Assembly: GCA_015494465.1 (NCBI GenBank)
Contig: WGBD01000011.1
Coordinates: 3,553-67,552, forward strand
DNA: 64,000 nt
Direction: 5' to 3'
DNA from: Candidatus Omnitrophota bacterium
Lineage (GTDB): Bacteria; Omnitrophota; Gorgyraeia; S143-82
Both the position numbers and the translations under genes were made by a program. Below, in pieces: positions 21,256 to 61,523 of the stretch; within the stretch, counting starts at the first letter, position 1, and each line of letters starts with the position of its first letter. The notes under the pieces were generated by a model. That model saw nothing but the letters and a program-made list of their open reading frames with translations, was not told the DNA's origin and searched no databases.

Positions 21256-21333
21256 TGGCGTCCCCACGGGGATTTGAACCCCGGCCAAGGGCTCGAAAGG
21301 CCCGTGTCCTAGACCTGGCTAGACGATGGGGAC
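21256..21333 (-). tRNA. tRNA-Glu (anticodon UUC), CCA encoded
   Basis: Reverse complement is GTCCCCATCGTCTAGCCAGGTCTAGGACACGGGCCTTTCGAGCCCTTGGCCGGGGTTCAAATCCCCGTGGGGACGCCA. It has a 7 bp acceptor stem, anticodon loop CTTTCGA and a TTCAAAT T-loop. Closely resembles E. coli tRNA-Glu. Confidence 0.85.
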
Positions 21334-49916: not shown

Positions 49917-50624
49917 TCAGGAGCAGTGGTAATCCACGAATCGGGAGACGAGATCGCTCAGAAGGGCGTCCTCCTTCCCCATCAGGCTGACCTCTACCGC
50001 GTTCTGTATGGGCAGGCGCTCTATGCTCCGGATGGCCCGTATCAGACCGGAAGAGACCCTGACCGCATCACCTAGACCGACCTGACAGCGGGAACAGATG
50101 AGCCCCCCTTCCCTGTGGCTGAACCAGGTAGGTTCCTGCGGGCCGGGCAGATACCCACACCTCAGGCAACTACGCAGGTGAGGCTTGAAACCGGAGAGGT
50201 TGAGTAGTTTTATCTCAAAGGCCCGTATCAGGCGGGCCGGTCCTACCACGGGGACCAGACGAAGCGTCTCCAGGGCCAGGGCGTAGAGTTCTGGGTTGGG
50301 CTGATGGACCGGGCTTATCCTGTCTATCAACTCCATAAGCCGGCTAGCAACGGTGAAGCCCTCCTTGGAGGTCGTCGGCAAGGCCCTCCTCAGGAGACTG
50401 CACTGGGATACCAGATGCAGACCGGAATGCCGGGAAGGATAAAAGACCACCTCGTTTACGGTGAACAGGTCCACGGAAGAGGCGAACTTGCGGGGATCCT
50501 TGCGTATCCCTTTCAATATCCCGTGGAACTTCCCGTGAGTAGGAGAAAAGAAGACCGCAATGAGGGAGGTCTCGCGTATCGGGAACCTGCGCAGAACTAG
50601 TGCCTCAGTCTTCTGAATCGCCAT
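49917..50624 (-). CDS. recO: DNA repair protein RecO
   Basis: 235 aa. N-terminal OB fold (KTEALVLRRFPIRETSLI) and C-terminal 4-Cys zinc motif CLRCGY...CSRC. Confidence 0.85.
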   Translation of the reverse strand: MAIQKTEALVLRRFPIRETSLIAVFFSPTHGKFHGILKGIRKDPRKFASSVDLFTVNEVVFYPSRHSGLHLVSQCSLLRRALPTTSKEGFTVASRLMELIDRISPVHQPNPELYALALETLRLVPVVGPARLIRAFEIKLLNLSGFKPHLRSCLRCGYLPGPQEPTWFSHREGGLICSRCQVGLGDAVRVSSGLIRAIRSIERLPIQNAVEVSLMGKEDALLSDLVSRFVDYHCS

Positions 50625-51669
50625 AAAGGGTCGGAAACTTCCCTGCCTTGAGCTCTTCCACTATCTTGGAGATGTACACCCTCCGCTCCACGGATGTGGG
50701 ATGGGTGCGCCAGAAGTCCCTTATCATACTCTCGGGCACCTCTATCGCAAACCTCTCCCAGATGTCTTTACCTACATCGATGTCGTATCCTGCCCGGTAG
50801 GCGAGGTACAGGCCCCAGTAGTCCGCCTGCATCTCCAACTCCCGGGAGTACCCGCTCTCCACCGCCCCTATCCCCGCGGAGACGACCGCTGAACCCAATC
50901 CCGGGATCTCCGAATCCAGCTTAGCCCCGAGGATGGAGTTCAATATGTTGGACAGGAGGTTCACCCCTGCCATCTTGCGGTGATGCCTTAGGAGGATGTG
51001 GGCTATCTCGTGCCCCAAGACCACCGCCAGTTCGTCGTCCGACCTGATGAACCTCATCATACCGTAGGTGACCACTACCGAATGGGGAGTGGCCATGGAG
51101 TTTATCTCCGGAGAGGAGGACATGTAAAAGTCTATCCACACCGGCCTCCAGTCCAATCGGGCCATTCGGACCTTTCTATCGTACCCGTCGCTGAGGTCCA
51201 ACTCCACATATTCTCCCGGACGGTAACGATAAAGAGCAGAAAGGTAATCCCGATAATCCCTCACCGAATAATCGCCCAACCCCAAGAGTATCTCTCCGGG
51301 AGAGACCGCAAGGTCCTCACAGGAGGTCCCGGGAACCCTTTCTCCTACCACCAGGAACCTTCCCTCGGGCAGGTCAAAGGCCATCGCGGTCTCCTCATTG
51401 TTCTCCACGAGCACCAATCCCAGATAGGGATAATCACCCTGATATAGTTCTTTGGGGATGTGAGTAAGGATCCTGTACCCAACCTTTGCCACCCTCTTCC
51501 AGAGGGAGAGGCGGTACCTCACCGCCTTGGCGGCAAGGTCCCTCTGATAGACCGCCACCTCCTCGGGCGTTGCCCTCGGGCCTTCGTAGACACAGCCCGA
51601 GGAGACCGTCAGGGCCAAGGTTAGGCCCAGTAGTACAAGTCTGTATCTTCCAATGTGAATGCGGACCAT
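50605..51669 (-). CDS. M48-family zinc metallopeptidase lipoprotein
   Basis: Signal peptide with lipobox VSSGC. HEIAH zincin motif with a downstream Glu (LEMQAD) typical of M48 (LoiP/BepA-like) peptidases. Confidence 0.78.
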   Translation of the reverse strand: MVRIHIGRYRLVLLGLTLALTVSSGCVYEGPRATPEEVAVYQRDLAAKAVRYRLSLWKRVAKVGYRILTHIPKELYQGDYPYLGLVLVENNEETAMAFDLPEGRFLVVGERVPGTSCEDLAVSPGEILLGLGDYSVRDYRDYLSALYRYRPGEYVELDLSDGYDRKVRMARLDWRPVWIDFYMSSSPEINSMATPHSVVVTYGMMRFIRSDDELAVVLGHEIAHILLRHHRKMAGVNLLSNILNSILGAKLDSEIPGLGSAVVSAGIGAVESGYSRELEMQADYWGLYLAYRAGYDIDVGKDIWERFAIEVPESMIRDFWRTHPTSVERRVYISKIVEELKAGKFPTLYGDSED

Positions 51670-51992
51670 ATCACATCCTTTACCCCGTCCCAGTCCACAC
51701 CCATCACCGTAAAGTGGTAATCGAGGTCTTGTTGCGGGAGCCTCTCTTGGATAAAGCTCACCGCGGTCTTGACTATCCTGCGCATCTTCCTGACATCAAC
51801 GCTCTCCAACGCCGAGACCAACGAGGTTTCGCCCCGGTGTCTCACCTCCACGAAGAAGACCTCTCTCCCCTTGCGGGCAACTATGTCCACCTCACCAAAG
51901 GGTTTTTTATAGTTGCGGGCAAGAATGGAAAACCCGTTATCCTTCAAGAATCTCACCGCTATGTCCTCGTAAATATCTCCCGGATTCACCAC
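51621..51992 (-). CDS. yraN: YraN-family (UPF0102) predicted endonuclease
   Basis: 123 aa. EVDIVARKGREVFFVEVRHR matches the UPF0102 restriction-endonuclease-like core. Sits in the conserved position downstream of rnhB. Confidence 0.8.
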   Translation of the reverse strand: MVNPGDIYEDIAVRFLKDNGFSILARNYKKPFGEVDIVARKGREVFFVEVRHRGETSLVSALESVDVRKMRRIVKTAVSFIQERLPQQDLDYHFTVMGVDWDGVKDVIWSAFTLEDTDLYYWA

Positions 51993-52600
51993 AACCTCAT
52001 CTGGACTACCGGATCGTAACTCCTCCTGTGCACCCGCGAGGGACCGTATTGGTTTATAGCCTTTATGTGATCCTCGGTAGCGTAGCCCTTGTGTCGAGCA
52101 AAGCCGTACTGAGGGTAGAGCACATCAAGGCCCAGCATTATACCGTCCCGCACCACCTTGGAGAGGATAGAGGCACAGGAGACCTGCGGTACAGATAAGT
52201 CCGCCTTCACCGTGGGCACGCACACCGAATCCAGATCCTCGGGCAGGGGTATACAGTCCCTGCCGTCCACCACCACCTCGATGCGATAGTCCCTCAGGGC
52301 CGGATGTTTTTTTATCAACGCCTCCAATGCCCGGGCCATCCCCGACAGGGTGGCTCGACGGATGTTCAACCTGTCTATGGTGTAGACATCCACGATGGCA
52401 ACCGACCAGTAGAGGTTCTTGGTGATGAACTCAAAGGCGGATCTCCTGCGCTTGGGGGTGAGGCGCTTGGAATCGGCGATGGCGATGTCTTTGGGGAATT
52501 CTATACCTTCCGGAAATGCCACCGCCGAACAGACCACTGGACCCGCCAACGGGCCTCTGCCTGCCTCATCTACCCCCACGGTCAGCGTCCTTCGCCCCAT
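51986..52600 (-). CDS. rnhB: Ribonuclease HII
   Basis: 204 aa. GVDEAGRGPLAGPVV active-site motif. Confidence 0.92.
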   Translation of the reverse strand: MGRRTLTVGVDEAGRGPLAGPVVCSAVAFPEGIEFPKDIAIADSKRLTPKRRRSAFEFITKNLYWSVAIVDVYTIDRLNIRRATLSGMARALEALIKKHPALRDYRIEVVVDGRDCIPLPEDLDSVCVPTVKADLSVPQVSCASILSKVVRDGIMLGLDVLYPQYGFARHKGYATEDHIKAINQYGPSRVHRRSYDPVVQMRLW

Positions 52601-53369
52601 CCAGGTACTCCAAGTCTTCTAAGGTGTACTCGTAGCGCTCCACCAACCTCATCTCTCCATCTATTTTATCCCAAATCATCAACTTGGTGGGGAGTTTGAG
52701 ACTGGGATTGAACTCTATTCGGGCGCGGTAGCAGTAGAATTCGGGATACCTGTCCTTGGGCAATGTTATCTCCAGACATATGTTCCCCGATCCGTCACTG
52801 CAATCCTCCACATCCAGATCCACCCCGTAGTCCTGCGCCAACCTCAACTGCTCTTGCAACACCTTGGCGATGTAATCAAACCCTGCGTGGTATATGGGAT
52901 GAAGGCTGTCCTTCATCGCCAGATCCGAGAGGGGATCGAGTTTGACCTTGAAGATTCTCTTCCAACCCGGGCCCCGGGCAACCAATCGGTAGTCGTTCTC
53001 CCCAGCCGGCCACCATACCTCCTGCCCCCGCTTGTTGGGGCTCAACCATCTCATGTGTATCCGCTTATCCAAGCGGTCCACCTCCACCTCTATCTCCTCT
53101 TCAGGAGTGTACCTGCCGTTCTTGTAAACCCTCTTCCTGCCAACGAATACATAGCCCCTGAGACGGTTCAACGAGTCCTCAAAGCCCGCCAATATCTGTC
53201 TGAGGCGGGCGAGTTTCTTTAAAAACTCTTTCTGAGATACCACCAATCCTTTGCTTGGCGAAGAGGTACTCTCCTCCCAGGTAGACTCTTCTATCCGGGC
53301 AAACCATACCCCCAAAGAAAGCGAGGCCATTAACCCGATAACCAATGCAACCCTAATGCCTAAACTCAT
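52566..53369 (-). CDS. Exported hypothetical protein, DUF1571/LolA-like
   Basis: 267 aa. N-terminal signal anchor IRVALVIGLMASLSLGVWFA. The body pattern RIHMRWLSPNKRGQEVWWPAGENDYRLVARG resembles DUF1571-family proteins. This is from memory of the family, with moderate confidence. Confidence 0.5.
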   Translation of the reverse strand: MSLGIRVALVIGLMASLSLGVWFARIEESTWEESTSSPSKGLVVSQKEFLKKLARLRQILAGFEDSLNRLRGYVFVGRKRVYKNGRYTPEEEIEVEVDRLDKRIHMRWLSPNKRGQEVWWPAGENDYRLVARGPGWKRIFKVKLDPLSDLAMKDSLHPIYHAGFDYIAKVLQEQLRLAQDYGVDLDVEDCSDGSGNICLEITLPKDRYPEFYCYRARIEFNPSLKLPTKLMIWDKIDGEMRLVERYEYTLEDLEYLDGAKDADRGGR

Positions 53370-54321
53370 GCCTTATCCTATCCCCCGCCAATTCGTCCAG
53401 ACCGTAATCCTCCTGCCACCAGCCCTTCTCCAGACCGAGCGAGAGCATCCACTCTTGCACATCCCTGTACTCCTTTCGGGTTATCCGCCGGGATACCTCC
53501 GGGACCTCGCCGGCCTTGTAGAAGGGATAGTACTGGCTCATGAGGGATATGTATACATCCTTTCCCAGATTCGTCCTTATCCACCTGAACCAGTCAAAGG
53601 ATCCCGAGGCATCGTTGGGCAGGACCAGGTGCCTTATCAGGACGCCTTTTAGCATAACTCCATCGGGAGAGAAGACCACCGATGGCCGTTGACGATACAT
53701 CTCCAAGAGAGCAGACCTTGCCACCTCAGGATAGTCTTTACTGCGGGCCAGTTTCATACTCCAGCGGCGGTGAAAGAACTTGGTATCCGGCAGGTAGACA
53801 TCCACCACCCCCTCGAGCAAGGCAAGGGTCTCTCTGCGCACATAAGAAGAGGTGTTGTAGACCAAAGGCAGGCGCAGGCCCATCGACACCGCTCTGTCCA
53901 AGGCCAATACTATGTGGGGCAGGTAATGTTCAGGAGTAACCAGATTGATGTTGTGCACTCCCATTGCCTGAAGTTCCAGCATGATGCGGGCGAGGTCGTC
54001 TATAGAGTAGATGCGCCCCTCGCCTTCCTGAGAGAAACGATAATTCTGACAGAATACGCACCCCAACGGACAGTGGGAGAAGAATATAGTCCCCGATCCC
54101 CCCTGCCCACTAATGCAGGGCTCCTCACCGGTGTGCACCATGTACCCGGCCAGTTCCAAATCAGCGCTAGCAGAGCAGAACCCCCTCTGGCCCTTCAACC
54201 TGTTCACACCGCAGGACCGGGGGCAGAGGCGACAGTTCTCCAATTGAGCCCAGAGATGCTCCCCTATCTCACGGAGCCTGCCTTCCCGTGCCAGTCTTAG
54301 ATAATCCGGCTCTATCGCCAT
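53353..54321 (-). CDS. Radical SAM protein, PflX-like (COG1313; pyruvate formate-lyase activating-enzyme homolog of unknown substrate)
   Basis: 322 aa. N-terminal CRLCPRSCGVNR motif and radical-SAM cluster CPLGCVFCQN. The gene overlaps the upstream gene by 53 nt and the downstream gene by 17 nt. Confidence 0.75.
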   Translation of the reverse strand: MAIEPDYLRLAREGRLREIGEHLWAQLENCRLCPRSCGVNRLKGQRGFCSASADLELAGYMVHTGEEPCISGQGGSGTIFFSHCPLGCVFCQNYRFSQEGEGRIYSIDDLARIMLELQAMGVHNINLVTPEHYLPHIVLALDRAVSMGLRLPLVYNTSSYVRRETLALLEGVVDVYLPDTKFFHRRWSMKLARSKDYPEVARSALLEMYRQRPSVVFSPDGVMLKGVLIRHLVLPNDASGSFDWFRWIRTNLGKDVYISLMSQYYPFYKAGEVPEVSRRITRKEYRDVQEWMLSLGLEKGWWQEDYGLDELAGDRIRHEFRH

Positions 54322-55291
54322 ACCTGTGCCTCAACAGGGTCGATACGAAGACGACCTTCACATTCTCCAACAACTCCGGTTCCATAATCAGTAGGGTATC
54401 CAAGGTAGAGGTGCGGTCGTGGCCTATCAATACGGCGTAGCCCTTCCTGCGGGCTATCTTCATCCCTAATCTGATCTGCCCCTTTATGTACTCAGGATTC
54501 AGGTCGTTATCTATAAAGACATCTCTCTTCACGCAGGGCAAACCCACTTCCTTTGCCACCTCCGTCACCACGCTCTTAGGAGAGGAGTAACTGTCCAGGA
54601 AAAACAACCCCCGCCGTTTCAACTCCCGCAATACGATCCGCATCACCCTGCGATCAGCGGTGGCCCGTGAGCCCATGTGGTTGTTGACGCCCTTTGCGTA
54701 CGGTACTTCCGCCAAGGCCCAATCGAGGATGCCTCGGATCTCCTCCTCACTCATCTCCACGGTTACGGTCCTAGGCTCCCAATGGGAACGGGAGAGTTTC
54801 ATCGGCTCCATTGGCAGATGGAGCATCACCTCTTTGTGGTATAACCGACACACCTGAGCAACCTGCCTGCTGAACCTGTGCCCCGGCAGTATCGCTATGT
54901 CCAGCGGGATACCTATCTCCTTCAGGTAGTGAATGTTCCTGTCGGAATATCCCCAGTCGTCCAGGACTATCGCCAGATAGGGGCGGGAGGATACCTTGGC
55001 GGATATTTGAGCTTTTAGGTTTGGTTTACCGGTCTTCTTCTTTTTAGACCCGGAAGCCCTCTTCTGAGGCGCTGCCCCTCGAGAAGATAGCTCCGTGGCC
55101 TTCCGAGATCTCAGGAGTCTCAACTGAGACTTCAGTTGCTGATTCTCTATCCAGAGCACGAGGACAAAAAGAGACAAGAAGAACAGACCCGCCAAAAGGA
55201 GCCATATAATCTCCTTCCTCCAGTCGAGTGGAGCCCTCTCTGGCCTCCTCTCCCTCCTCTTCTTGCCCCGCCTAGGCCTGCCCCCCATCAC
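54269..55291 (-). CDS. Divergent polysaccharide deacetylase family protein (YibQ-like), membrane anchored
   Basis: 340 aa. Basic N-terminus followed by a TM helix [21 protein letters not shown]. The periplasmic domain shows the YibQ-family pattern [13 protein letters not shown]... [11 protein letters not shown]. The start overlaps the DAHP synthase stop (ATGA). Confidence 0.7.
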
Positions 55292-56301
55292 AGATCTCTA
55301 CCCACCGCCTGGGCAACCTTGCGCACATCCCTCACCAGCTCCTGGAACATCTCCGGGGTGAGAGACTGGGCACCGTCGGACAGGGCCTCCTCTGGACAGG
55401 TGTGGACCTCTATCATCAGACCATCCGCACCGGCAGCCACTCCAGCCATAGATACCGCCTTTATCAATTCCCTCTTACCGGTCCCGTGGCTGGGATCCAC
55501 TATCACCGGCAGGTGAGACAGCAACTTCACTGCTGGTATGGCGTTTATGTCCAGGGTATTCCGGGTATGCTGCTCAAAGGTCCTTATTCCCCTTTCACAG
55601 AGTATCACCTCAAAGTTCCCCTCCTTGAGGATGTACTCCGCGGACATCAACCACTCCTTTATGGTGGCACACAGCCCCCGCTTTAGCATGACCGGCTTCT
55701 TTACCTGTCCAACCTCCTTGAGGAGGTTGAAGTTCTGCATGTTCCTGGCACCGATCTGGAGGATGTCCACATACCTGCTCACCAGCTCCACCTGACGGGG
55801 CTCCATGACCTCGCTTATGGTGACCAGGCCGAGTTCATCTGCTACCTGGCGCATGTACTTCAGGCCCTCTTCCCCTAGGCCCTGGAAGGAATAAGGTGAA
55901 GTGCGGGGTTTAAAAGCCCCACCCCGAAGTATCACCGCCCCTGCGGACTTCACTGCCCGAGCGATGTCCCTCAACCGATCCAACCCTTCTATGGAACAGG
56001 GGCCAGCCATTAGCACGATCTTATCCCCACCTATCTCCACATCCTTTACCCTAATGACCGTGGATTCGGGCTTGAACTCCCGTGAGACGAGCTTATAAGG
56101 GGCCATCACCGGCATAACCTTTTCAACACCCGGGCAGGCCTCGATAGGCTGACCCAAAAGGAGAGACTCGTCGCCAATAACACCTATGATGGTCCTCTCC
56201 ACTCCTCTAGAGACCATGGTCTTCAATCCAAGGCTCTCTACCCGCTGTACGACATGATCGACCTGATCCTGGGTGGCGTTGGCCTTCATAACGATTATCA
56301 T
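55288..56301 (-). CDS. aroG: 3-deoxy-7-phosphoheptulonate (DAHP) synthase, class I-beta, with an N-terminal ferredoxin-like regulatory domain
   Basis: ATG at 56301 is preceded by GGAGGTG; the hisC stop TGA sits between the SD and the ATG. An N-terminal regulatory domain of about 70 aa precedes a KDSA/DAHPS TIM barrel ([20 protein letters not shown]). The gene symbol is generic. Confidence 0.85.
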
Positions 56302-56306
56302 AAAAA

Positions 56307-57410
56307 TCACCTCCTATTCTTCAGAAACGCCTTCACTGCCTTTACGAACCTCCGATTCTCCCGAGGTTGCCCTACGGTAACCCTGATGTAGTCCTGAAGT
56401 CCCCAGGCCTTCATGTGTCTCACTATTATCCCAGACTTCAAGAGGTATTCAACCAGTTCCTCGCTCTTCGGCCCCACTTTTACCAAAAGAAAGTTGGTGG
56501 CAGAATCCAAAACCTCCAGACCAAGGCTACTTAGTGCCTTGCGAAGAAACCCTTTTTCCCGTTTAAAAAGGCGGTATATCCGCTCGTAATATTCCTTGCT
56601 ATCCAAGGCTGCTATCCCAGCCACTTGGGCGAGGCTATTCACATTGAATGGTTCCCTTACCCGGTTCATGAGGTCTATTACTTCCTTACGAGCGAATGCG
56701 TAACCCAACCTTACGCCTGCCAGACCGTAGTACTTAGAAAAGGTGCGAGAGACCACCACGTTCTTGCCTGCCTTCAAAAAGTCCAGGCCGTTGGGATAAT
56801 CCTCAAGCTCCCTTGCGAACTCGTAGTAGGCCTCGTCCAGAAACACGCACACCTCCTCCGGGATGCTATTCAAGAATCTGGCCAGCTCCTCTTTGGTCAC
56901 ATAGGTACCAGTGGGGTTATCGGGATTGGCAATGAAGACCAGCTTCGTGGAATCGGTTATCGCCGAGCTGATGGCTCCAAGATCGTAGCGCATCCCCTTG
57001 GCAGGCACCTCCCTCACCCGAATACCCTCTACCAATCCCGCAATCTTGTAGATGAGAAATGTAGGGAAAGAGGTGACTATCTCCTGCCCAGGGGCAACCA
57101 GGGAGCGCACCGCAAATACGATTATCTCATCACTTCCGTTACCAAAAATGATCTGATCCTCAGAGACACCGAACTCCTTGGCTATCCTCTGGCGCAGGTA
57201 GTATTGATTCCCTTCCGGATAGCGATTTATCCCACTCACTGCCCGGCATATGGCCTTACGCACTCGAGGAGAGGGGGGGAAGGGATTCTCGTTAGAGGCC
57301 AGTTTTACCACATCCCTTACGCCAAGCTCCCGCTTCAGTTCCTCTATGGGTTTACCTGGCTTGTATACCGCTATGTTACGCAGATAAGTGCGCAAGGATC
57401 CGTCCCCCAA
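56307..57410 (-). CDS. hisC: Histidinol-phosphate aminotransferase
   Basis: 367 aa class II aminotransferase (KLASNENPFPPSP; PLP-lysine region YGLAGVRLGYA). Apparent TTG start at 57410, only 11 nt downstream of the tRNA-Arg 3' end, with no SD. Confidence 0.88.
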   Translation of the reverse strand: MGDGSLRTYLRNIAVYKPGKPIEELKRELGVRDVVKLASNENPFPPSPRVRKAICRAVSGINRYPEGNQYYLRQRIAKEFGVSEDQIIFGNGSDEIIVFAVRSLVAPGQEIVTSFPTFLIYKIAGLVEGIRVREVPAKGMRYDLGAISSAITDSTKLVFIANPDNPTGTYVTKEELARFLNSIPEEVCVFLDEAYYEFARELEDYPNGLDFLKAGKNVVVSRTFSKYYGLAGVRLGYAFARKEVIDLMNRVREPFNVNSLAQVAGIAALDSKEYYERIYRLFKREKGFLRKALSSLGLEVLDSATNFLLVKVGPKSEELVEYLLKSGIIVRHMKAWGLQDYIRVTVGQPRENRRFVKAVKAFLKNRR

Positions 57411-57421
57411 ACAAAAAATCC

Positions 57422-57495
57422 CGCGCCCAGAGGGACTCGAACCCCCAACACCCAGCTCCGTAGGCTGGTGCTCTATCCAATTGAGCTATGGGCGC
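57422..57495 (-). tRNA. tRNA-Arg (anticodon ACG), CCA not encoded
   Basis: Reverse complement is GCGCCCATAGCTCAATTGGATAGAGCACCAGCCTACGGAGCTGGGTGTTGGGGGTTCGAGTCCCTCTGGGCGCG. D-arm GCTCAATTGGATAGAGC, anticodon loop CTACGGA, TTCGAGT T-loop. Confidence 0.88.
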
Positions 57496-57541
57496 AGAAC
57501 ATTTACTTTTACTACTAATCGCAGTAAATTACAACCCCAAA

Positions 57542-59011
57542 CTACTCTACTCGCCAGAACTTGAAGCGGATTATCCTCTTAAGTAGCCCTATCTCCCCAA
57601 CGAACCAGGTGCGTTGGGCAGGTGTGGGGTCTATCTCCTCCTCGTCTATCACATGGTTGCCGTTGACATCCGCACTGGCCCTGACGCTGAAGACATGCCT
57701 TCCCGGTGCAAGGTTGACCAGAAGCACCGAATCCTCTTTAGACCACCTGCTCCACTTCCCTCCATCCAAGGAATAAGAGTAGTAGCACTTGTCGAGGGAA
57801 CAACGATACCGGAAATAGGCATCCGTCTGCTTGGTCACTCCCGTTGGTCCGCTGACGATAATGGTATCCGGGGCAAGTAGTTCCAGGATTATGGAGGAAG
57901 AATACACTCGCGAGACATTGCCTGCCTTATCCATGAACTGGACGAAGACCGTCTGCCTTCCACTGTAGGGCCTCAGTCTCCACTCTAGCTCCTCTCTGTA
58001 ATCCGTCCAGGCAGAGGACTCACATTCCGCTCGGGAGTTCCCTACCCTAACCTTGCTCACCCCTGAATAATTGTCCTGGGCCGACAGCGTTAACAATACA
58101 GTGATACTATTAGTGTGCTTGGCCCCGTGGTTTATCTGAACGGATCCGGTGGGGGGGATCGTGTCCACCGCAAAACCCCATACGAAGGCGCTCGTCCTGT
58201 TGCCTGCCAAATCGCTGGCCTCCACGGAGACGGTTACCCTGCCCTCGGGTAAGATACCGTAATTGACGAAGCAACCGCAGGTTTTGTCGAACTTCAGGTA
58301 CACCCGACGGTTATTTATTCTACACACTACGTGCCTGGCATCCACACCACTGGCCTTATCCTCTATCCAGATCTTAATCGGTTCGTCTCGGGCGTTCAAC
58401 AGCGTCCCACTCTTTGGCTCCACCCGGCTTATCCCCGGAGGCTCGGTGTCCACCCATATGGCAAAACTGCCCACCTCGCCCCAGACACCTGCGCTATTTT
58501 GGGCCTTCACATAGAAGGTATGCTTACCATCGGTAATGGGGTTGTCCTTATAATCTGCAAACTTGCTGGTGGTATCTATCTCGTCGTCTGGATCCGAATC
58601 CAAGGAGTAGCTGTAACCTGCGGGGATGAGCTGGGGATTCTTTATCTCCCAGACGAAGTAAGGCGTAGGATCCGACTGCCACCTTCCAGGGTATATCCTA
58701 AAACCGCCTGGGTGGGTATAGGCCGAGATCCAATCGATGTCGTAAGCACCCTCCTCCTCAGGTCCTTGCCCCAATATAGTGAGCACCGTAAAAAAACCAC
58801 TGGTGATCTTCTTCATCTCCCTAACGATCACCCCAACGAAGGTATCGCCTATAACATGCCTGATGATGTAATTCGCGGAACGCATAGGCGATGTCCCCAT
58901 CGCGGTTATCCAACCCCAGTGCTTGAATTGCTTTGACCTGGGCGGAGAGAATCCCCACAGGTCAACCAGCAGAAAACACCCTAGCAACAAAATCAGCCAC
59001 TTTTTGCGCAT
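57542..59011 (-). CDS. Secreted hypothetical protein with tandem Ig-like/fibronectin-like beta domains (489 aa)
   Basis: Signal peptide MRKKWLILLLGCFLLVDLWGF. Repeated modules are each introduced by VDTEPPGISRVEP, VDTIPPTGSVQI or LLAPDTIIVSGP, with conserved SGV/AGN segments, typical of Big/Ig-like extracellular domains. The 5' end overlaps the trpF 3' end by 50 nt. Confidence 0.6.
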   Translation of the reverse strand: MRKKWLILLLGCFLLVDLWGFSPPRSKQFKHWGWITAMGTSPMRSANYIIRHVIGDTFVGVIVREMKKITSGFFTVLTILGQGPEEEGAYDIDWISAYTHPGGFRIYPGRWQSDPTPYFVWEIKNPQLIPAGYSYSLDSDPDDEIDTTSKFADYKDNPITDGKHTFYVKAQNSAGVWGEVGSFAIWVDTEPPGISRVEPKSGTLLNARDEPIKIWIEDKASGVDARHVVCRINNRRVYLKFDKTCGCFVNYGILPEGRVTVSVEASDLAGNRTSAFVWGFAVDTIPPTGSVQINHGAKHTNSITVLLTLSAQDNYSGVSKVRVGNSRAECESSAWTDYREELEWRLRPYSGRQTVFVQFMDKAGNVSRVYSSSIILELLAPDTIIVSGPTGVTKQTDAYFRYRCSLDKCYYSYSLDGGKWSRWSKEDSVLLVNLAPGRHVFSVRASADVNGNHVIDEEEIDPTPAQRTWFVGEIGLLKRIIRFKFWRVE

Positions 59012-59576
59012 CCTTTAAGCCTGGCTCCCTTTCCAGTCCCGAGGCAACATCAACCCCGTATGGTCTGACCTTTCTCACAGCCTCTGCCACATTCTCTGGT
59101 CTCAAGCCCCCAGCCAATATCACTGGGAGCCTAGCAGACTCCACTACATCCCTGGCCTTATCCCAATCGATAGTAAGCCCCGTCCCTCCCGGACTATCTT
59201 TACCAGAGGCATCCAATAGGATAGCAGAATACCAGCGAGGGATCTCGTCCAAGTCCAGTCCCTCCAAGGCTACCGCCCTTATCAACTTCGATCCCTTCAG
59301 AATTGATCTGGCGGGCTCTGAAGGGTCGAAGTAGAGTTGAAATGTGTCAAACCCTATCTCCTTCAGTAGCTTCAAAAGGTCCAAATCCTCCCGGGTGACG
59401 ACTGCTACCTTGCTCACGAAAACGGGAAGGGCCTGGATGATTCGGGCAGATGTAGGTAGGTCCACCTTTCTGGGGCTTGTGGGATGGAACACGAACCCTA
59501 AGGCGTGTACGCCTAAGCGAACGCACAGCAAGGCATCCTCTAGATTGGTGATCCCACAGATCTTAATCCGAACCAT
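58962..59576 (-). CDS. trpF: N-(5'-phosphoribosyl)anthranilate isomerase
   Basis: 204 aa TIM barrel. MVRIKICGITNLEDALLCVRLGVHALGFVF is the canonical TrpF N-terminus. Confidence 0.9.
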   Translation of the reverse strand: MVRIKICGITNLEDALLCVRLGVHALGFVFHPTSPRKVDLPTSARIIQALPVFVSKVAVVTREDLDLLKLLKEIGFDTFQLYFDPSEPARSILKGSKLIRAVALEGLDLDEIPRWYSAILLDASGKDSPGGTGLTIDWDKARDVVESARLPVILAGGLRPENVAEAVRKVRPYGVDVASGLEREPGLKDAQKVADFVARVFSAG

Positions 59577-60096
59577 CTCTGCCCACCAGGATCCGATAAC
59601 CAGAGTAAAGGCTCACCAGGACCGACAGGTATGCCAGCCACCTTACCAGCAAAACCAGGGAATCGATTCGGGACAAAAGGGTCGCAAATCCCAATACCAG
59701 GGTAAACATCTGCAGGCCCGTCTTCGTCTTACCCCACCAGAAGGCAGGCACGACACGGTTGTCCTTGCTCAAGACCGCGAACCTGTACAGCGTAAGTCCT
59801 ACCTCCCGCAAGGCCAATACCCCTACTACCCACCAGGGCAAGATCTCCTTCCAGGCCAGGACAGTAAATCCCGCTAGCACCATCACCTTATCGGTTATGG
59901 GATCTATCAACCTCCCAAACTCGCTCTCAAGCAAGAACCGGCGGGCAAGGTAACCGTCCAGCATGTCGGAGAGGCTAGCAATCCCGAAGAGAAATACGGC
60001 AATCCCTATCCTGTCCACATAGAAACAATAGAGGGCCAAGGCAGTCAACGGGATCCTCGAGAGACTGATGAGATTAGGCACCTGTGCCAGGATCAT
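59563..60096 (-). CDS. pgsA: CDP-diacylglycerol--glycerol-3-phosphate 3-phosphatidyltransferase
   Basis: 177 aa membrane protein with the CDP-alcohol phosphatidyltransferase motif DMLDGYLAR...G...D. Confidence 0.88.
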   Translation of the reverse strand: MILAQVPNLISLSRIPLTALALYCFYVDRIGIAVFLFGIASLSDMLDGYLARRFLLESEFGRLIDPITDKVMVLAGFTVLAWKEILPWWVVGVLALREVGLTLYRFAVLSKDNRVVPAFWWGKTKTGLQMFTLVLGFATLLSRIDSLVLLVRWLAYLSVLVSLYSGYRILVGRDGSD

Positions 60097-61523
60097 ACAT
60101 CGATAACTTTTAAGCTGTTAGTCGTCCCCGGAACGCCAAAGGGCATGCCCGAGGTGATGACTATCCTGTCTCCCTGGGATACCACATCCAATGCAGAGAG
60201 AAACTGGGTTAGTTCGTCCCCTACTATGTTCAACCGGCTCATGTATATCGGATAGACGCCAAAAGAGAGGTTCAGGATGTTCCTCACGGTGTAGTTGTCG
60301 GTTACCGCTATGATCCACTGCTCCGGACGGAGACGAGATATGCGCCTCGCGGTTGTCCCAGTGGTGGTAGGAGTGACCACGAAGTCCACCGAGCGGTTGC
60401 AGAGTATGTCGTAGGTGGCTATGCTTATCATGTCGTCGATCCTATCGGATTGACGGATCACCTCCCTTATCAGCTCTGCCATGGATCCGGGCTGGACGAG
60501 TTCAGTCTCGGTTATGCGGGCGATCTTCACCGCCATCTTTACCACTTCGACTGGATACTTGCCTACCGCTGTCTCTTCCGAGAACATTATCGCATCCGCT
60601 CCGTCCAATATGGCATTGGCCACATCGGTAACCTCTGCTCGGGTAGGCCTGAGGTTGTCCACCATGGACTCCAACATCTGGGTGGCGACTATCACCGGCT
60701 TTGCCTGCATGTTGGCCACCCTTATGATACGCTTCTGTATCACTGGGATCTCCTCTATAGGAAGCTCAACCCCCAGATCACCCCTGGCAACCATCACCGC
60801 GTCCGCAGACTCGACGATGGCCTCTATGTTCTCAACTGCCTTGCCCCTCTCTATCTTGGCAAGGATAAACGGACGATAGTGGGGATCTTGGGGAAGAAGG
60901 GACTTGGCCTTTTCTATGTCATCGGGGCTACCCACGAACGAGACGCATATCACATCCACCTTGTTCTTCACTCCAAACTCGATACAGGTCTTATCAAAGT
61001 CAGTTATTGCTCCCTCCTTGAACTCTATCCCCGGCACATTTATCCCCTTGTGGGATCGTACCGTCCCGGGCAATAAGGCCCTGGTGAGTATCTCTTTCCC
61101 TCTCACCTCCAGGACCTTGAACTGCAGGACCCCGTCTCCAACGTATATTATGTCCCCCTTGTGGACCTTCTTTTCTAGGCCAGCTATCTCGTGAGGGAGA
61201 TATATTGCATCCTCAAAACTCCTCTTCTTCCCGTCGGAAAAGACGACCAGTTCTCCCTTCTTCACCTCCACGGGCTCTTCTAACTTCCCCAACCTCATCT
61301 TGGGCCCGGGCAGGTCTATTATCACTGCCACACCGCTGTTCAGGTCCTCGGAGACTGAACGGATCCGTTTGATTATCTGGGAGAACTCACTGAAAGTGCC
61401 GTGGGACATGTTCAGACGAAAGCCGTCCACCCCCGCTTTGATTAGTTTGGATATCGTCTTCTCGTCGCTGGAACTGGGACCGATGGTGGCAACTATCTTG
61501 GTCTTTGGGGCCCTGATCCTCAT
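60093..61523 (-). CDS. pyk: Pyruvate kinase
   Basis: 476 aa. TKIVATIGPSSSDEKTISKLIKAGVDGFRLNMSHGT is the N-terminus, with the MVARGDLGVE active-site motif. Confidence 0.93.
   Translation of the reverse strand: MRIRAPKTKIVATIGPSSSDEKTISKLIKAGVDGFRLNMSHGTFSEFSQIIKRIRSVSEDLNSGVAVIIDLPGPKMRLGKLEEPVEVKKGELVVFSDGKKRSFEDAIYLPHEIAGLEKKVHKGDIIYVGDGVLQFKVLEVRGKEILTRALLPGTVRSHKGINVPGIEFKEGAITDFDKTCIEFGVKNKVDVICVSFVGSPDDIEKAKSLLPQDPHYRPFILAKIERGKAVENIEAIVESADAVMVARGDLGVELPIEEIPVIQKRIIRVANMQAKPVIVATQMLESMVDNLRPTRAEVTDVANAILDGADAIMFSEETAVGKYPVEVVKMAVKIARITETELVQPGSMAELIREVIRQSDRIDDMISIATYDILCNRSVDFVVTPTTTGTTARRISRLRPEQWIIAVTDNYTVRNILNLSFGVYPIYMSRLNIVGDELTQFLSALDVVSQGDRIVITSGMPFGVPGTTNSLKVIDV

Follow-up and report, generated by a model that had tools for sequence, protein, structure and literature searches.

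A syntenic string of overlapping genes with a possible clade-restricted radical SAM-DUF1571 pair in a Candidatus Omnitrophota bacterium

We analysed a stretch of 64,000 nucleotides (nt) from a Candidatus Omnitrophota bacterium (contig WGBD01000011.1, positions 3,553 to 67,552; hereafter the window), and in particular three overlapping genes on its minus strand that encode a deacetylase, a radical S-adenosylmethionine (SAM) protein and an exported protein of the family DUF1571. An earlier note on this DNA had proposed that the three form a single envelope or polysaccharide modification system. Our analysis gives this proposal weak support, and what is left of a claim to a unit concerns the radical SAM and DUF1571 genes in one narrow clade. 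The stretch represents conserved synteny, possibly with a radical SAM-DUF1571 pair restricted to the clade, and not an established envelope-modification system. We favour, with moderate confidence, the reading that the genes have three separate functions within a tightly packed housekeeping string that runs from hisC to recO, and that they do not constitute a three-enzyme pathway. The deacetylase would then be an SddA-like periplasmic peptidoglycan deacetylase with an inner-membrane anchor, and the radical SAM protein a cytoplasmic enzyme resembling the activase of pyruvate formate-lyase (PFL), with a probable auxiliary cluster and a substrate shared by many anaerobes. The DUF1571 protein would be an exported envelope protein of LolA/RseB fold that, judging from this fold, probably binds a hydrophobic ligand. 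The trio would recur in close relatives only through shared descent, and the radical SAM-DUF1571 pair, the one association that outlasts rearrangement, may be a clade-specific addition. What the window contains are new members of known families, of which two are uncharacterised, and not a system of a new kind.

The three genes

The trio consists of three open reading frames (ORFs) with one Pfam family each, and the coordinates and overlaps described previously were reproduced:

54269..55291 (GTG start) or 54269..55288 (ATG start), minus strand: SddA/YibQ-family deacetylase (PF04748, E 9e-69)
54269..54321, minus strand: 53-nt overlap of the deacetylase 3′ end and the radical SAM 5′ end
53353..54321, minus strand: radical SAM protein, PFL-activase-like, 322 amino acids (PF04055, E 2e-10)
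53353..53369, minus strand: 17-nt overlap of the radical SAM stop and the DUF1571 start, ATGAGTTTAGGCATTAG
52566..53369, minus strand: DUF1571 protein, 267 amino acids (PF07608, E 3e-21)

The family assignments made from the letters alone (YibQ-type deacetylase, PFL-activase-like radical SAM protein and LolA-like DUF1571 protein) were borne out by Pfam matches and by folds on predicted models. The start of the deacetylase needs correction. It had been described as an ATGA overlap with the upstream DAHP synthase gene, whose stop codon TGA occupies 55290-55288; the options are GTG at 55291 (junction GTGA, 340 amino acids) or ATG at 55288 (junction TGATG with a 1-nt overlap, 339 amino acids). The latter is the likely start and is the form given by gene callers and by all relatives. 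For the radical SAM protein, the start at 54321 is backed by residues Y7, G14 and L16, which lie upstream of alternative starts and are invariant in 21 homologues. The DUF1571 start is preceded by a Shine-Dalgarno-like stretch, GGATAAGG, inside the 3′ end of the radical SAM gene, and the 3′ end of the DUF1571 gene overlaps the gene for RNase HII by up to 35 nt, an overlap that the earlier note had omitted.

Gene overlaps are a property of the genome

The overlaps within the trio had been taken to imply obligate co-translation as a module. We therefore counted overlaps between consecutive minus-strand genes of the whole window, using longest-ORF starts. Out of 54 such pairs 35 overlap, 21 of them by at least 10 nt, and the median gap is -4 nt. 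The trio lies in the middle of an unbroken chain of nine overlapping genes, hisC-DAHP synthase-deacetylase-radical SAM-DUF1571-rnhB-yraN-M48-recO. The tRNA at its upstream end and the other members of the chain are as follows:

57421..57496, minus strand: tRNA-Arg(ACG), upstream end of the overlapping string (ARAGORN; Rfam tRNA, 65 bits)
56307..57410, minus strand: hisC-type aminotransferase, first gene of the chain (ORF; PF00155 at the same position in relatives)
55288..56310, minus strand: DAHP synthase with N-terminal ferredoxin-like domain (PF00793, E 7e-82; PF18152; NF006421, 519 bits)
51986..52600, minus strand: RNase HII, rnhB (PF01351; NF000595, 191 bits)
51621-51992, minus strand: yraN
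50605-51669, minus strand: M48 metalloprotease
49917-50624, minus strand: recO, last gene of the chain

Expressed as gaps, the junctions measure -4 nt (hisC/DAHP synthase), -4 nt (DAHP synthase/deacetylase), -53 nt (deacetylase/radical SAM), -17 nt (radical SAM/DUF1571), -35 nt (DUF1571/RNase HII), -7 nt (RNase HII/YraN), -49 nt (YraN/M48 protease) and -20 nt (M48 protease/RecO). Since overlaps are the rule in this genome, those of the trio are not evidence for an obligately co-translated module; they reflect genome-wide gene packing. If the overlap argument were accepted, DAHP synthase, RNase HII, YraN, the M48 protease and RecO would be linked to the trio just as closely. The deacetylase/radical SAM junction moreover varies among relatives (-53, -20, -11, -4, +1 and +12 nt), and the deacetylase tail that lies inside the overlap is not conserved among clade orthologues. 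The overlaps probably give all nine genes of the chain co-transcription and some translational coupling. More generally, where a genome is compact, a functional module cannot be inferred from start/stop overlaps.

The idea that the trio has a promoter or terminator of its own at its borders was rejected, as consensus-scan sites inside the chain occur at the level of shuffled sequence; control by a riboswitch or leader was likewise rejected, as Rfam shows tRNAs only. Downstream of recO a gap of 102 nt precedes mraZ, with a strong promoter-like site at 49875-49846 (11-of-12 match). Nearly all genes of the window lie on the minus strand, and all 2-kb bins have a negative GC skew (-0.07 to -0.25). 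Some of the longest-ORF starts lie too far upstream, for example that of ThrS at 21288, which places the start of the ORF within tRNA-Glu (21256-21333).

Conservation of the trio and of its pairs

Gene neighbourhoods were compared in a close clade of seven genomes including that of the window, all fairly close relatives with radical SAM identities of 61-90%, and in a wider sample of the radical SAM family comprising 80 genome loci from many phyla (43-53% identity). The arrangements in the close clade are:

Window: hisC-DAHP synthase-deacetylase-radical SAM-DUF1571, then rnhB
L087: hisC-DAHP synthase-deacetylase-radical SAM-DUF1571, then speD-speE
L003: hisC-DAHP synthase-deacetylase-radical SAM-DUF1571, then trmI-rml
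L097: hisC-DAHP synthase-deacetylase-radical SAM-DUF1571, then nitroreductase-NUDIX-bacA
L001: hisC-DAHP synthase-deacetylase-radical SAM, no DUF1571, then rpsO
L088: hisC-DAHP synthase-deacetylase-radical SAM, no DUF1571, then rnhB-yraN-M48-recO, as in the window
L005: Wzy-GT4-radical SAM-DUF1571, no deacetylase, then CTP_transf_3

The full trio is thus found in four of the seven clade genomes, the deacetylase-radical SAM pair in six, always with hisC and DAHP synthase upstream, and the radical SAM-DUF1571 pair in five. The pair of DAHP synthase and deacetylase is also present in six of seven, though the two are functionally unrelated. Because this pair is equally conserved, the linkage of deacetylase and radical SAM genes is what plain synteny by shared descent would give. 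It was lost in the only clade genome that has the radical SAM gene in a new context, namely L005, where the gene follows that of a GT4 glycosyltransferase. Synteny in the clade reaches well beyond the trio, as L087 shares the order PK-CDP-OH_P_transf-PRAI-Big_13/DUF7743-hisC-DAHP synthase with the window.

In the wider sample we searched for the flanking genes with hidden Markov models (HMMs) derived from the proteins of the clade and, for DUF1571, also from about 130 sequences of the wider family. Neither PF04748 nor DUF1571 was detected within 5 kb of the radical SAM gene in any of the 80 loci, so that the expected conservation of the trio across genomes holds for part of the close clade and fails outside it. 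The genes immediately upstream in these loci belonged to 95 Pfam families and those immediately downstream to 103, the commonest being Spermine_synth (8), followed by DUF4416, M48 and HAD (4 each); PF04748, DUF1571 and glycyl-radical enzymes were not among them.

These results bear directly on the proposal of one three-gene envelope or polysaccharide pathway in which radical chemistry, deacetylation and carriage act on the same substrate. The full trio in four of seven clade genomes speaks for it, as do the predicted envelope location of both flanking proteins, the predicted export of many distant radical SAM homologues by the twin-arginine translocation (Tat) system (see below) and, in L005, the position of the radical SAM-DUF1571 pair next to the envelope-glycan genes Wzy and GT4. 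However, the link between deacetylase and radical SAM genes is indistinguishable from a hisC-DAHP synthase-deacetylase-radical SAM synteny block and is lost in L005, their junction keeps neither its length nor the deacetylase tail, PF04748 is absent from the 80 wider loci, and overlaps are uninformative in this genome. Furthermore, the radical SAM protein of the window carries no export signal, whereas a periplasmic location is predicted for the deacetylase domain, and the characterised deacetylase of this family needs no partner enzyme. We therefore regard such a pathway as improbable.

In other Omnitrophota (L020, L023, L026, L028 and L047) the radical SAM orthologue (45-47% identity) occurs in a different recurring arrangement, in which DUF4416 and/or M48 precede it and DUF2062 or an AMP-binding acyl-CoA-synthetase-like gene follows, the genes mostly overlapping. 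In the window an M48 protease is encoded three genes downstream of the radical SAM gene. An ancient M48-radical SAM link was rejected, as the window M48 protein and those adjacent to the radical SAM gene in Omnitrophota share their catalytic core only (34% identity over 126 amino acids). The window M48 metalloprotease has an N-terminal hydrophobic segment, and its residues 80-160, ahead of the HExxH motif, weakly match the PDZ part of DegP/HtrA; a PDZ-like region is an unusual architecture for M48.

The deacetylase

The deacetylase matches PF04748 with 231.2 bits against a gathering score of 27.5 and covers profile positions 1-212 of 212. In the PDB it matches BH1492 (2NLY; E 5e-29), with motifs aligning as LDDWG to IDDFG, HLPMEP to HMPLEP and NNHMGS to NNHMGS. 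In this alignment the putative metal ligands D111, D112, H158 and H205 fall on the DD, H and H motifs of 2NLY, and they are invariant in six clade orthologues. The catalytic domain spans approximately residues 104-320. It is preceded by an Arg/Lys-rich N-terminus, one hydrophobic helix (approximately residues 28-48) and a linker that is also basic, which agrees with the N-terminal transmembrane anchor that had been predicted. By the positive-inside rule, the one basis for this topology, the arrangement suggests an inner-membrane-anchored protein with its domain facing the periplasm.

A characterised relative is SddA of E. coli (formerly YibQ), a periplasmic, septal enzyme that deacetylates N-acetylglucosamine (GlcNAc) in denuded peptidoglycan strands (PMC12440217). 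Its active site of two Asp and two His (D31, D32, H78 and H123) is shared with the zinc site of BH1492, the Asp residues are needed for activity, and SddA acts alone on denuded glycan strands, without a partner enzyme (PMC12440217). By homology, the window protein would deacetylate the GlcNAc residues of peptidoglycan glycan strands. Such a substrate is plausible because ftsI and mraZ-rsmH, the start of a division and cell-wall gene cluster, are also encoded in the window. By analogy with SddA the deacetylase would be self-sufficient, its predicted function requiring no radical chemistry.

The radical SAM protein

Both motifs reported for the radical SAM protein, CRLCPRSCGVNR and CPLGCVFCQN, are present. 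It contains seven conserved Cys, namely C84, C88 and C91 of the CX3CX2C cluster motif and a second set of C30, C33, C37 and C49. A signal peptide is absent, and the protein is predicted to be cytoplasmic. The AlphaFold model is confident (predicted local distance difference test, pLDDT, 94.5), and among solved structures PFL activase comes closest to it (Foldseek TM score 0.54 by query and 0.69 by target). A plain sequence search of the PDB gave no match, and a profile search gave PFL activase as its sole, marginal match (E 0.0026) around the cluster motif. None of the NCBIfam models reached its cut-off; the best scores were those of AmmeMemoRadiSam TIGR04337 (22.9 bits against 220) and NrdG2 (22.9 against 131), and the model for the T4HPD activase gave 16.5 bits against 425. 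Most likely the protein binds a [4Fe-4S] cluster at C84/C88/C91 and cleaves SAM to a 5′-deoxyadenosyl radical that would abstract hydrogen from the substrate, while C30/C33/C37/C49 probably hold a second cluster.

At least 8000 proteins at E <= 1e-5 make this a very large family. Homologues at about 50% identity are found in Omnitrophota, Bacteroidota, Syntrophia, Clostridia, Chloroflexota, Atribacterota and others, and the closest named matches, also at about 50%, come from Omnitrophota and other metagenome-assembled genomes (MAGs) of anaerobes. JGI labels homologues as putative pyruvate formate lyase activating enzyme. We found no paper on PflX or COG1313. The substrate would be one common to many anaerobes, and it is probably a protein or peptide because PFL activase is the closest fold.

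The label and the profile match to PFL activase raise the alternative that the protein is a true activase and that the gene for its glycyl-radical partner lies elsewhere in the genome. As the earlier note had stated, the window encodes no glycyl-radical enzyme: its ORFs of at least 600 amino acids are PheT, ThrS and a 779-amino-acid ORF without Pfam match. Nor was one found adjacent to the gene in the seven clade loci, or in the wider family, for which 141 immediate neighbours at 77 loci were inspected; L088 encodes NrdD together with its own NrdG. The activase models NrdG2 and T4HPD score far below their cut-offs, as given above. A PROSITE-type activase signature that ends in G-C-x3-C-x2-C-x-N fails at the Gly before the first Cys, which is His83 here, and matches only once this position is relaxed. 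Known activases also have neither the N-terminal four-Cys motif of this family nor the Tat signals seen in about 40% of it. The protein is PFL-activase-like but not a demonstrable glycyl-radical activase, and we consider a true activase very improbable. What value remains in the stretch lies in this protein, which belongs to one of the larger radical SAM families without an assigned reaction, widespread in anaerobes.

The DUF1571 protein

The DUF1571 protein matches PF07608 with 76.5 bits against a gathering score of 27. Its N-terminus is hydrophobic and without a lipobox Cys. It is predicted to be exported or membrane-anchored, and the predicted model shows a LolA/RseB-type fold; the description as an exported LolA-like protein thus holds up at the level of prediction. 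Such a protein probably binds a hydrophobic ligand in the envelope. Its most conserved stretch, GPGWKRIFKVKLDPLSDLAMKDSLHPIY, at residues 133-161 (window 52890-52973 for residues 133-160), is also the least confidently modelled, with pLDDT below 50 at residues 137-161, and may form a loop or lid of the LolA-like cavity that is flexible and important for function. The motifs LDP..AM...HPI in this stretch are common to the whole DUF1571 family, whereas an invariant Cys213 (motif FYCY) is specific to the subfamily and not conserved beyond it.

This close subfamily is tiny, comprising five to seven sequences among 5.8 billion (five to six in word-based searches, even when started from an alignment). 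For the wider family, a profile search recovered 933 representative clusters at E <= 0.001. A metagenome scan for the subfamily returned a single locus, L090, which is truncated and has no upstream DNA. Literature searches on DUF1571 found nothing. A fusion of DUF1571 to radical SAM or deacetylase domains in longer members was rejected, since the long members carry DUF1571 only.

A radical SAM gene was found near none of the distant DUF1571 genes at three informative loci, where neighbours were DUF169, Peptidase_C92 and SurA-like genes. On two unrelated metagenomic contigs (L095:4074-5084, L098:7680-8527, L098:2122-2823) distant DUF1571 genes lie near genes for SurA-like peptidyl-prolyl isomerases, and on one of the two the DUF1571 gene overlaps a Peptidase_C92 gene by 19 nt. 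This fits an outer-envelope role of the family.

A possible radical SAM-DUF1571 pair

Four observations weigh against a complete independence of the three genes. The adjacency of radical SAM and DUF1571 genes in five of seven clade genomes holds across five downstream and two upstream contexts. Their overlap is conserved as well, being 17 nt in the window, L087 and L097 and a 4-nt ATGA in L003 and L005. All members of the DUF1571 subfamily with visible upstream DNA follow a radical SAM gene. Finally, the Tat-type signals of about 40% of wider-family radical SAM homologues hint at an envelope substrate, which would place the radical SAM protein functionally closer to its neighbours than three independent genes would suggest.

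It is therefore possible, though clearly less probable than the separate functions that we favour, that the radical SAM and DUF1571 genes form a clade-restricted two-gene unit with the deacetylase as a bystander. The radical SAM enzyme might modify the DUF1571 protein before export, or make or modify its hydrophobic ligand. In the window, L087, L097, L003 and L005 the DUF1571 gene lies directly 3′ of the radical SAM gene despite differing flanks, the overlap geometry is kept with the Shine-Dalgarno-like stretch in the radical SAM 3′ end, and the small subfamily is seen solely in this position. Further points in its favour are that PFL activase, the closest fold, has a protein substrate and that C213 is invariant in this subfamily specifically. 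An analogous precedent might be seen in the HXS anti-phage system, in which the radical SAM proteins HxsB/HxsC mature the periplasmic effector HxsA (PMC13128918). On the other side, two clade genomes (L001 and L088) keep the radical SAM gene without DUF1571 at the locus, and most of the conserved DUF1571 motifs are family-wide and also occur in members without a radical SAM neighbour. The radical SAM family outnumbers the DUF1571 subfamily about 1000-fold and is otherwise never found beside DUF1571, so that DUF1571 cannot be the general substrate of the family. In addition, retained synteny is hard to exclude because the seven genomes are fairly close relatives.

The Tat-type signals form part of an N-terminal extension that about 40% of the homologues in the wider family carry (a strict pattern detects it in 30 of 77, and near-misses raise this to 34). 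It consists of a twin-arginine motif of the S/T-R-R-x-F-L-K type and a hydrophobic stretch, often with a lipobox-like [LA][AST][GA]C. The sample comprised L007-L086 (for example L016:4806-5933, L038:4136-5194 and L007:4845-5915), and the extension also occurs in P0011, P0056, P0066, P0093 and P0108. The radical SAM proteins of the window and of its clade relatives lack it. From sequence, the extended homologues are predicted to be Tat-exported and possibly lipid-anchored periplasmic enzymes. Our literature searches on radical SAM proteins and Tat export did not turn up a radical SAM family with such an extension, and we are aware of no precedent for radical SAM enzymes in the periplasm.

At eight loci a Tat-type homologue is encoded 3′ of a membrane protein with a Spermine_synth domain (L016:2509-4809, L017:2536-4830, L029:2523-4808, L038:1831-4131, L048:313-2616, L054:2119-4548, L045 and L049), with gaps of -55 to +18 nt at longest-ORF starts. 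The Spermine_synth proteins have approximately 765-810 amino acids where complete, and the eight are mutually related at E < 1e-165. Their hosts are Anaerolineae/Chloroflexi, a Nitrospiraceae MAG, a deltaproteobacterium, Balneolales and the unclassified bacterium UBA2214, and this protein is the only cross-phylum neighbour of the radical SAM family that we saw. Separately, the genes that come after DUF1571 in L087 are speD-speE-speD.

One might speculate that this PflX-type family as a whole acts on an envelope-destined substrate, and that in the clade of the window a signal-less, cytoplasmic form is translationally coupled to a LolA-fold protein, which it would modify before export or load with a radical-modified lipid. 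We hold this doubtful. The possible clade-specific partner DUF1571 and the family forms with Tat signals offer two concrete routes to the substrate of the radical SAM protein.

Other features of the window

A 489-amino-acid protein with a signal-peptide-like N-terminus and weak matches to Big_13 and DUF7743 is encoded at 57542-59011 (minus strand), between a TrpF-like gene and tRNA-Arg/hisC; the region 58962-61523 was noted alongside. The 779-amino-acid ORF, at 63-2402 on the plus strand, has no Pfam match at E <= 0.001 and is among the few long plus-strand ORFs. An anti-phage defence system was considered and rejected, as none of the three proteins has a PADLOC match.

Comparison with known systems

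The similarity to HXS is conceptual only, in that cytoplasmic radical SAM enzymes modify the product of a neighbouring gene that works in the periplasm. The radical SAM protein of the window is of a different type, no HxS model of NCBIfam matched, and the DUF1571 protein has no His-x-Ser repeats.

With the superfamily of periplasmic lipid and lipoprotein binders LolA, LolB and RseB (MucB) the DUF1571 protein shares only 6-14% identity. It differs by the lack of a lipobox and by its low-confidence conserved segment 133-161; it has no match to the LolA or LolB Pfam families at E <= 0.01, and lol genes were not found in the loci.

Among characterised radical SAM enzymes, PflA (3C8F/3CB8) resembles the window protein in its CX3CX2C motif, its fold and its similarly compact size without SPASM or B12 domain. 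The identity is only about 15-17%, however, and the window protein is extended at both ends, by a helical region that carries four conserved Cys at the N-terminus and by a further segment at the C-terminus; furthermore, no locus examined encodes a glycyl-radical partner. The window protein has NINLVTPEH where PflA presumably has a GGE-type SAM-binding motif. The AmmeMemoRadiSam radical SAM protein (TIGR04337), the top NCBIfam match, aligns with residues 29-277 and thus with nearly the whole protein. We take it to have a similar Cys-rich N-terminal motif ahead of the cluster. Yet its score is far below the cut-off, and the AMMECR1 and Memo families are absent from the neighbour census.

The deacetylase and SddA belong to the same Pfam family, which the window protein matches over the full profile. 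All four metal-ligand positions are kept, as D-D, H and H with a spacing of 46/47 in the window protein and as D31, D32, H78 and H123 in SddA, and the window domain is likewise predicted to lie outside the cytoplasmic membrane. The window protein differs in having an N-terminal transmembrane anchor and a long basic linker where SddA has a cleaved signal peptide, and its gene is flanked by those for DAHP synthase and the radical SAM protein, not by an envC/M23 gene; M23 was not found among the seven genes scanned around the deacetylase or in the clade loci, the remaining window not having been scanned. With SddA, one of three genes that had appeared unexplained now has a characterised relative.

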